Sequence record: PQ657772.1
DNA: 64,000 nucleotides
Reading direction: 5' to 3' (one strand)
From: Escherichia phage EC.P1
This document shows, piece after piece, positions 15,058 to 15,644 of the stretch (position 1 is its first letter; the number at the start of each line of letters is the position of its first letter). The notes beneath the pieces were generated by a model. The model searched no databases and was not told where the DNA came from. It was given only the letters and a program-made list of their open reading frames with translations. The translations under genes and the position numbers were made by a program.

Positions 15058-15279
15058 TTACATGTTATGATTTGGTATACAGTACACAAATACTAAATTG
15101 GAAAAGTGTTCAGTACTGGAATATTTTGCTAAATCTGTTATATGGAAGTAGACATCTTTGAAATTATCATTCTCAAATGTCGTTATTTGTAAACAGTGTG
15201 TGGGTCTGAAAATATAATAATAAAATATATCATCTTCAGTCACAACTGTATGGTTTTTGTAGCGTTCAATTTTTTTCAT
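15058..15279 (-). CDS. hypothetical protein
   Basis: Track ORF 15058..15327; internal ATG at 15279 gives ATGA coupling with upstream gene. Confidence 0.4.
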   Translation of the reverse strand: MKKIERYKNHTVVTEDDIFYYYIFRPTHCLQITTFENDNFKDVYFHITDLAKYSSTEHFSNLVFVYCIPNHNM

Positions 15280-15644
15280 GTGTGAATAATTTCTTTGACC
15301 CCATATTCCATAATTGCCAACGTACAAATCTCACAAGGCTTTGCAGGGACTGGAATACCATCTTTACTTACCCGTGCAATCAACAAAGTATGAACTTCAG
15401 CACGAGAAGCCAGCAAACATGAGATTTCAGCATGAAGAAATTCACCTTGTGGACGACCAGCACGGATTGCAAAACCTTTCTGTACTGGGTGAGTATGTGT
15501 GTAAGAATTAGTACGTGTTGCCAATACACGACCTTTCTTATCTAGTGCACGAGCAATCACACGATAACGTTTGTAGCTCCCCACTTGCTCGATGGGTGGC
15601 ATCCGTCGTAATTCTTCAATTAGTTTCTCAAGTTTACGATTCAT
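15276..15644 (-). CDS. cytidine-deaminase-fold zinc enzyme (small CDA-like)
   Basis: 122 aa; LHAE ... PAKPCEICT = H-A-E / PCxxC zinc-deaminase signature; noticeably GC-richer than neighbours. Confidence 0.55.
   Translation of the reverse strand: MNRKLEKLIEELRRMPPIEQVGSYKRYRVIARALDKKGRVLATRTNSYTHTHPVQKGFAIRAGRPQGEFLHAEISCLLASRAEVHTLLIARVSKDGIPVPAKPCEICTLAIMEYGVKEIIHT

Follow-up and report, generated by a model that had tools for sequence, protein, structure and literature searches.

Deaminases of deoxycytidine monophosphate (dCMP) are grouped with ComE in a clade whose synapomorphies include an NxxP motif at the end of strand 2, NA placed two residues past the HxE motif, and TxxxT in strand 3 (Iyer et al. 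2011, PMC3239186). In the same clade, a Tyr after strand 4 is followed by helix 4 and a parallel strand 5, the clade itself belongs to the helix-4 division (PMC3239186), and the loop-3 insert of dCMP deaminases restricts the pocket to soluble substrate (PMC3239186). Here, we analyze a 64,000-nucleotide stretch of Escherichia phage EC.P1 (PQ657772.1; hereafter, the window), in which the open reading frame (ORF) at 15276..15644 encodes a 122-amino-acid (aa) protein of the cytidine deaminase (CDA) fold that we refer to as the mini-deaminase. Judged by its sequence, this protein is a distinct truncated offshoot of the dCMP deaminase lineage and not a bona fide dCMP deaminase. A sequence-only reading of the window had proposed a second small CDA-fold deaminase with HAE and PCxxC motifs in addition to a dCMP deaminase encoded about 10 kb away, and both genes are indeed present: the 122-aa protein carries HAE and PCEIC and matches PF00383 and PHROG 174, and the other gene encodes a 158-aa enzyme with a strong PF00383 match.

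The mini-deaminase ORF is no chance reading frame because its product matches PF00383, as a marginal pass (E 7.7e-6, 26.2 bits against a cut-off of 25), and PHROG 174, annotated as "dCMP deaminase" (E 1e-11), because a search of 5.8 billion proteins returned 49 homologues (best E 1e-74), and because the gene differs from its orthologue in phage 121Q by 41 synonymous and 7 non-synonymous codons. The synonymous excess indicates strong purifying selection on the gene. The surrounding 3 kb are 96-98% identical to Escherichia phages Turkey3, CMSTMSU, vB_Ec-M-J, Ecwhy_1, and fEgEco12 and 86-87% identical to phages 121Q and PBECO4, and the Ecwhy_1 and WPEC5 proteins are 100% identical to the 122-aa protein. 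Judged by its surroundings, the window comes from a RaK2-like jumbo myovirus of roughly 350 kb. The gene is already contained, and annotated, in many public phage records, under labels that include "dCMP deaminase," "cytidine/deoxycytidylate deaminase," "CMP/dCMP-type deaminase domain-containing protein," and "hypothetical protein." The presence of two such enzymes in one phage is likewise in the literature, the paper on the related phage CBB stating "two CMP/dCMP deaminases" (PMC5259590).

An AlphaFold2 (AF2) model of the 122-aa protein, built from 28 homologues, is confident (pLDDT 90.2, pTM 0.83) and shows a single domain with the CDA fold. The three-layer alpha/beta order b1-b2-a2-b3-a3-b4 of the CDA-fold superfamily (PF00383/clan CL0109) is present, as is the zinc and catalytic signature of the superfamily, H/CxE in helix 2 and PCxxC in helix 3. 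In the model, the protein stops at T122, right after strand 4, and has neither helix 4 nor strand 5. The Asn equivalent to N46 has been described as the "secondary catalytic Asn" of cytidine deaminases (PMC4683357). By its motifs, the 122-aa protein is a catalytically intact and apparently active minimal CDA-fold zinc deaminase.

The mini-deaminase belongs to a large family whose members are typically about 100-140 aa long. A hidden Markov model (HMM) search of 1.84 billion cluster representatives gave 1003 matches at E ≤ 1e-10, the best 150 of which range from 96 to 166 aa in length. These 150 were combined with the 49 homologues for family statistics (n = 198), and the window protein was added for the conservation alignment (n = 199). 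HxE…PCxxC is kept in 197 of the 198 family members. In the alignment, the HAE residues H71, A72, and E73 are 97-100% conserved, P103, C104, and C107 are 99-100% conserved, and these positions together with N46, H52, P53, Q55, and R91 all lie at 90-100%; position 91 is Lys or Arg in 99% of the sequences. In half of the family, the chain stops at strand 4, as in the window protein, and a further 43% carry a short tail; more than 30 residues follow CxxC in only 7%, compared with 44 in the canonical deaminase of the window. At least 454 viral loci in IMG/VR contain a family member, and a scan of one genome per species across 185,579 bacterial and archaeal species gave 14 loci, all on contigs of metagenome-assembled genomes and most of them short. 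The family therefore appears to be almost restricted to phages, with the reservation that the viral and cellular scans used slightly different query patterns. The GenBank phages that carry a family member are RaK2-like jumbo phages, phiKZ-like phages, 115-125-kb Aeromonas and Pseudaeromonas phages, and cyanomyophages. The phiKZ member, gp260, is 34% identical to the window protein, and its gene has its own primary transcription start site, detected in early infection (PMC8244752). We found in the literature no experimental work on phiKZ gp260 beyond that mapped start site, no published experimental work on any other family member, and no earlier account that sets the family apart as a phage-restricted clade of basic proteins terminating at strand 4.

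The closest sequence-profile kinship of the family is with the dCMP deaminase/ComE clade. A profile built from 32 family sequences and searched against the sequences of the PDB matched the dCMP deaminase of cyanophage S-TIM5 (4P9C) best among all classes (E 8e-10), followed by a tRNA deaminase of Mycoplasma capricolum (E 3e-8), the dCMP deaminase of S. mutans (E 1e-6), T4 Cd (E 3e-6), human DCTD (E 1e-5), TadA (E 1.5e-4), and tetrameric CDA (E 0.02). When the family was aligned by hhalign with six canonical phage dCMP deaminases, the probability was 98.5% (E 2.7e-15) over canonical columns 12-128 of 153, and the last ~25 canonical residues, comprising helix 4 and strand 5, were unmatched in the mini family. 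All 32 sampled members match PHROG 174, and all 32 match PF00383 (best E 3e-16). The NCBIfam model ComEB does not match the 122-aa protein. The 24-aa insert in loop 3, which separates strand 2 from helix 2, aligns with those of S-TIM5 and the canonical phage enzymes, contains only one helix in the model, and is comparable in length to that of shorter canonical dCMP deaminases such as S-TIM5. The family also has traits of its own: the loop after Asn46 reads S-Y-x-K-T-H-P-x-Q, in contrast to G-T-P-x-G…N-x-C in canonical enzymes, and an extra stretch of ~10 residues, beginning with R91, lies between strand 3 and PCxxC.

We favor, with moderate confidence, the reading that the 122-aa protein deaminates a free cytosine deoxynucleotide (dCMP, perhaps deoxycytidine triphosphate [dCTP]) without allostery, adding to the supply of deoxyuridine and deoxythymidine monophosphate (dUMP and dTMP). 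We hold this reading because of the nearest relatives, the retained loop-3 insert, neighborhoods that contain nrdD and nrdG, thymidylate kinase, and ThyX, and the case of KLEP7, a complete 117-kb phage in which the family member gp40 is the sole detectable CDA-fold gene and which also encodes thymidylate synthase and NrdD/G. In the mechanism we envisage, zinc held by H71, C104, and C107 would activate water, E73 would shuttle protons, and N46 would position the base, so that dCMP, or possibly dCTP, is converted to the uracil nucleotide and the product supplies the phage with a precursor of thymidylate for its genome of 34% G+C. The phosphate or phosphates would be bound by the invariant R91 together with conserved basic residues. 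With neither the zinc site in loop 3 nor the GYNG-type loop that regulated dCMP deaminases have, the mini enzyme would probably escape allosteric control by dCTP and deoxythymidine triphosphate and, being unregulated, would be complementary to, and not redundant with, the canonical Cd. The family branched from the dCMP deaminase lineage with loss of helix 4, strand 5, and the second zinc site.

A number of observations weigh against a free-nucleotide role. Most of the published synapomorphies of the dCMP deaminase/ComE clade (PMC3239186) are missing from the protein. The second zinc site is lacking, there being no Cys before residue 76 in the window protein and none upstream of HxE in 89 of 197 family members. 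In place of NxxP, the window protein has N46-S-Y-T, with a conserved Pro at N+7 within T-H-P; in place of HAExNA, it has HAEISC (family consensus HAEIxA); and strand 3 reads H-T-L-L-I-A-R-V, without TxxxT, and leads into the family-specific insertion. H120 occupies the position of the Tyr after strand 4, which is kept in most relatives, and the chain ends two residues later, with both helix 4 and strand 5 absent. Of the dCMP deaminase features, the protein retains just the Asn together with an insert whose length matches. According to the 2011 survey, C-terminal truncation of the fold is found only in Bd3614 and the toxin-type clades BURPS668_1122, YwqJ, OTT_1508, and XOO_2897 (PMC3239186), and phage "dCMP deaminases" can take unexpected substrates, namely 5-methylcytosine (5mC), 5-hydroxymethylcytosine (5hmC), and single-stranded DNA (ssDNA) (bioRxiv 10.1101/2024.12.05.627091). 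Coexistence with a canonical dCMP deaminase, which the window and CBB share with 6 of 80 viral loci, argues against simple redundancy. Finally, the family is uniformly and strongly basic: its median isoelectric point (pI) is 9.6, its median net charge is +9, and the pI exceeds 8.5 in 97% of its members, whereas co-encoded canonical dCMP deaminases have a pI of 6.1-6.7 in five of six cases and 8.6 in the sixth. The window protein, at pI 9.84, is the fourth most basic of 106 in a proteome with a median of 5.46. Conserved basic positions in the family are K36, K37, position 50, R81, R91, and K102. Such family-wide basicity is more typical of binders of polyanions or nucleic acids, although it is also compatible with binding of nucleotide phosphates.

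These observations give some weight to the possibility, which we regard as a tentative one, that the mini-deaminase is a polynucleotide cytosine deaminase that binds nucleic acid directly and acts on ssDNA, RNA, or tRNA in host takeover, counter-defense, or RNA editing. Its basicity, its loss of helix 4 and strand 5 in the manner of nucleic-acid deaminases (PMC3239186), and its coexistence with a canonical dCMP deaminase would all fit this possibility, as would the Mycoplasma tRNA deaminase as second-best solved relative. There are precedents in CDAT8, a dCMP-deaminase-type enzyme turned tRNA editor (PMC3239186), and in the phage PF00383 enzymes, some of which deaminate ssDNA (bioRxiv 10.1101/2024.12.05.627091). 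Set against this are the loop-3 insert, kept at dCMP deaminase length and capping the pocket in that clade, and the lack of an RNA- or DNA-binding domain, of a delivery domain, and of an immunity-type partner conserved across the family. PADLOC was negative, the Pfam scores for MafB19, Bd3614, and APOBEC were far under their cut-offs, the context is one of nucleotide metabolism and replication and not of defense, and there are no tRNA genes in the window. The Bd3614 model is weakly matched, below its cut-off, by 6 of the 32 family members. Two more specific identities were rejected: an anti-phage dCTP deaminase or other defense deaminase (NF041025, 10.6 bits against a cut-off of 400; zero PADLOC families) and a polymorphic-toxin nucleic-acid deaminase (MafB19, 13.3 bits against a cut-off of 27; single domain; no conserved neighbor in 50 loci). 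A broader form of the proposal, in which the family is a compact polynucleotide or otherwise non-canonical cytosine deaminase directed against the host or its defenses, or a subunit that retunes the canonical dCMP deaminase, seems to us similarly possible but rather unlikely. Between nucleotide metabolism and the nucleic-acid or anti-defense activity that the sequence-only reading had offered as alternatives, the genomic context favors the former, while basicity and C-terminal truncation keep the latter alive.

A deaminase of modified or otherwise non-canonical cytosine nucleotides, for example one that converts 5-methyl-dCMP from Dcm- or phage-methylated DNA to dTMP or clears unwanted nucleotides, would account for non-redundancy with the canonical Cd, but we consider it improbable. 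Many phage PF00383 deaminases do prefer 5mC or 5hmC nucleotides (bioRxiv 10.1101/2024.12.05.627091), and a C5-cytosine methyltransferase and methylated DNA are found in related phages (PMC7247149; PMC3622015). The known 5mC-selective enzymes, however, are of canonical size (154 aa) and have homologues of dCMP-methylating thymidylate synthases within 3 kb, a linkage absent here and in the 50 surveyed loci, and homologues of dCMP hydroxymethylase and glucosyltransferase were undetected in RaK2-type phages (PMC3622015). Nucleoside salvage by a housekeeping-type cytidine/deoxycytidine deaminase is very unlikely. The small size of the protein, weak matches to TIGR01354 in 10 of 32 family members, and the short C-terminal tails of some relatives, which could make a beta hairpin, would be in keeping with it, but TIGR01354 scores 12.8 bits for the window protein against a cut-off of 113.65, HAE stands where CAE is usual, PCEICT leaves no PCxxCR, there is no strand 5 with a terminal Glu, and the PDB profile gives CDA an E of 0.02 as opposed to 8e-10 for dCMP deaminase. 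Still harder to credit is a TadA-like tRNA(Arg) A34 adenosine deaminase, the name on some homologue records at JGI: the motif is AKPCEIC instead of EPCxMC, nothing follows strand 4 that could supply the two C-terminal tRNA-binding helices with their conserved Glu and Phe, NF008113 does not match the window protein, and the window is devoid of tRNA genes. The 24-aa loop-3 insert is also far longer than that of TadA. Both the housekeeping tetrameric CDA and TadA were therefore rejected on motifs, NCBIfam, and PDB profile scores.

The G+C content of the gene raises the question of its origin. At 42.3%, it exceeds the mean of 33.9% for 107 window ORFs (rank 3 of 107, z = 2.1) and peaks at 44.7% in a 300-nt sliding window, so that the sequence-only reading was correct in placing the gene above its neighbors. 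Only codon positions 1 (56.9%) and 2 (43.1%) contribute to the excess. G+C at third positions (GC3) is 26.8%, a little under the window mean of 28.4% (rank 65 of 107), and synonymous codon use, scored by a leave-one-out likelihood normalized for amino-acid content, is typical of the window (z = -0.57, rank 42 of 105). The excess stems from the composition of the protein: Arg, Ala, Pro, and Gly together account for 30.3% of its residues, as opposed to 15.8% in the window proteome. The RaK2 and phiKZ orthologues show the same pattern, with gene G+C above that of their own locus and low GC3, and in the GAP32 orthologue, also low in GC3, the G+C excess is marginal (36.1% against 34.8%). ATGA overlaps join the gene to both neighbors, the upstream gene ending on its start codon and the downstream one beginning on its stop codon, and the gene lies in a block, 208-aa protein, mini-deaminase, small ORF or ORFs, nrdD, and nrdG, that is common to the window (Asteriusvirus-type), RaK2 (Alcyoneusvirus), and GAP32 (Mimasvirus); in GAP32, a thymidylate kinase is inserted into the block, two genes from the mini-deaminase. 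Because GC3 and codon use are native, the gene overlaps both neighbors, its order is kept across three genera, and orthologues share its G+C pattern, the mini-deaminase is an old, vertically inherited resident of the early region for nucleotide metabolism in RaK2/121Q-like jumbo phages. Recent acquisition as a foreign gene is effectively refuted by this evidence, and the separate acquisition that the sequence-only reading had drawn from the high total G+C is not supported. That reading had also named two outcomes as decisive against it, of which one was found and the other was not: codon usage is indistinguishable from that of the neighbors, but the protein does not group with the homotetrameric cytidine deaminases, and among characterized proteins its nearest relatives are dCMP deaminases. 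More generally, an Arg/Ala/Pro/Gly-rich protein can raise the G+C of its gene, and G+C of this kind is no evidence of horizontal transfer.

The codon analysis also brought out an 81-aa ORF (67 aa from the first ATG) elsewhere in the window, with a GC3 of 0.54 against a window mean of 0.28 and a synonymous-codon z of -7.1, more extreme than in any other of 105 ORFs. This ORF probably does not encode a protein, or else it is foreign or non-coding DNA between genes.

The canonical dCMP deaminase of the window shows what the mini-deaminase has lost. It carries GYNGTP, HAEMNA, TTLQPCYTC, VIYHKSY, the Cys and His residues for the second zinc site, and the C-terminal region of helix 4 and strand 5, so that by sequence reading all of the clade synapomorphies listed above are present. 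Profiles separate the two proteins cleanly, the mini-family profile scoring 144 bits for the 122-aa gene and 27 for the 158-aa gene and the canonical profile 14.4 and 189.7 bits, respectively. A six-frame profile scan found no third CDA-fold gene in the window. Recent paralogy of the two deaminases was rejected, since BLASTP between them finds no significant similarity (E = 13). Upstream of the mini-deaminase, the translationally coupled 208-aa protein is very acidic (pI 4.5, net charge -22), and the pair is kept in RaK2 (ORF517/518) and GAP32 (133/134). Downstream, the 73-aa ORF has no Pfam or PHROG match, and NrdD, the large subunit of the anaerobic ribonucleotide reductase, follows in the same direction of transcription, an order found also in RaK2 and GAP32. 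PADLOC matched zero families, and neither tRNA genes nor Rfam matches were found in the window.

Beyond these phages, 142 neighboring proteins from 50 diverse viral loci were searched against Pfam and PHROGs. No partner gene was common to all 50 loci, and none recurred except canonical dCMP deaminases and replication genes, which turned up occasionally. The neighbors mix functions in replication and nucleotide metabolism and include DnaB, primase-helicase, ligase, PolA, dUTPase, and phosphoesterases. Of 80 viral loci, 6 have a canonical dCMP deaminase gene no more than 5 kb from the mini-deaminase, and in three of these the two genes are direct neighbors. Recurrence of this pairing in unrelated viral contigs may reflect cooperation between the two enzymes or a heteromer.

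Table. Positions of the genes, motifs, and predicted structural elements discussed (window coordinates unless another record or residue numbers are given)
Feature	Position	Strand	Remarks
Mini-deaminase coding sequence	15276..15644	minus	ATG start, TGA stop; 122 aa; CDA-fold zinc deaminase
H71-A72-E73 codons	15426..15434	minus	Zinc-ligand His and catalytic Glu; direct sequence reading
P103-C104-E-I-C107 codons	15324..15338	minus	Two zinc-ligand Cys; direct sequence reading
N46 codon	15507..15509	minus	Invariant Asn opening loop 3; family motif S-Y-x-K-T-H-P-x-Q next
R91 codon	15372..15374	minus	Family-specific invariant Arg at end of beta3; opens ~10-residue insertion before PCxxC
Predicted helices	residues 3-14, 53-61, 72-80, 105-114		alpha1; loop-3 helix; alpha2 with HAE; alpha3 with PCEIC
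Predicted strands	residues 28-34, 40-45, 86-92, 118-121		beta1; beta2; beta3; beta4
Canonical dCMP deaminase	25978..26454	minus	158 aa; PF00383 E 4e-22
Upstream protein	15641..16267	minus	208 aa (204 aa from Turkey3 start, 12 nt downstream); phrog_16370
Downstream 73-aa ORF	15058..15279	minus	ATG overlaps deaminase stop; Turkey3 locus positions 7058-7279
NrdD	11803..13635	minus	PF13597 E 3.7e-167
WGR-domain protein	17069..18040	minus	323 aa
81-aa ORF	50743..50988	minus	67 aa from first ATG
phiKZ gp260	L087 3998-4357		HSE in place of HAE
KLEP7 gp40	L082 34566-34985		HVE in place of HAE
IMG/VR locus L032	5019-7400		Mini-deaminase, 4-nt gap, canonical dCMP deaminase, one intervening region, ThyX ~0.6 kb downstream
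IMG/VR locus L012	1246-3458		T4-type RNase H, DUF6433, mini-deaminase, canonical dCMP deaminase; deaminases overlap by 4 nt
Turkey3 NAD-dependent protein deacylase	L001 13967-14719		Roughly window 21970-22720; annotation of Turkey3 record
Turkey3 PhoH-like protein	L001 11289-12728		Roughly window 19290-20730; annotation of Turkey3 record

Two further features lie in the neighborhood of the gene. The C-terminal part of a 323-aa protein is a WGR domain (PF05406, E 1.3e-10), and the protein has no PHROG match. WGR domains are familiar mainly from PARP and MolR-type proteins, and one in a phage is unusual. In addition, two genes a few kilobases from the deaminase in the Turkey3 record are annotated as encoding a sirtuin-like NAD-dependent protein deacylase and a PhoH-like protein.

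The meaning of the mini-deaminase depends on which activity it has. If it acts on free nucleotides in the ordinary way, it simply joins the other nucleotide-pool genes of a jumbo phage. If it acts on polynucleotides or unusual nucleotides, the activity would be widespread among phages, the model phage phiKZ included, and a very compact deaminase scaffold of ~100-120 aa would become available for base-editing tools. A family of 100-125 aa with such a novel activity would, to our knowledge, be the smallest active nucleic-acid deaminase scaffold. Regardless of the activity, at least 450 viral loci and ~1000 sequence clusters are labeled by way of PHROG 174 or as "dCMP deaminase" without most of the features that define that clade, and the label has apparently been transferred by weak similarity.

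Comparison with described deaminases places the mini family among several known systems. With dCMP deaminases (T4 Cd, S-TIM5, S. mutans, human DCTD, and ComEB), the mini-deaminase shares the HxE and PCxxC zinc site, the Asn that ends strand 2, phage nucleotide-metabolism contexts, and the PHROG 174 grouping. It differs from them in pI (9.8 as opposed to about 6.5) and length (122 aa as opposed to 138-193 aa), in lacking the second zinc site, NxxP, NA, TxxxT, helix 4, and strand 5, and in having its own loop-3 motif SYxKTHPxQ and an insertion of ~10 residues with invariant Arg91 before PCxxC. With Bd3614-like and toxin-type deaminases (BURPS668_1122/DddA, YwqJ, XOO_2897, and OTT_1508), the mini family has in common that C-terminal elements of the fold are lost or degraded, and it is set apart from them by the absence of an N-terminal delivery or globular domain and of an immunity gene and by its dCMP-deaminase-type loop-3 insert. 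The phage "mSCD" 5mC-selective deaminases are, like the mini family, PF00383 phage proteins annotated as dCMP deaminase, and they accept other substrates, including ssDNA (bioRxiv 10.1101/2024.12.05.627091). Unlike the mini family, they are of canonical size (mSCD-B5, 154 aa) and structurally closest to the PBCV-1, S-TIM5, and T4 enzymes, and their genes are linked to homologues of dCMP-modifying thymidylate synthases, a linkage not seen for the mini-deaminase. By contrast with all of these, phiKZ gp260, RaK2 ORF518, GAP32_134, and the second CMP/dCMP deaminase of CBB belong to the same family as the window protein, at 34-71% identity and with no substantive difference from it, under GenBank labels that read either dCMP deaminase or hypothetical protein.

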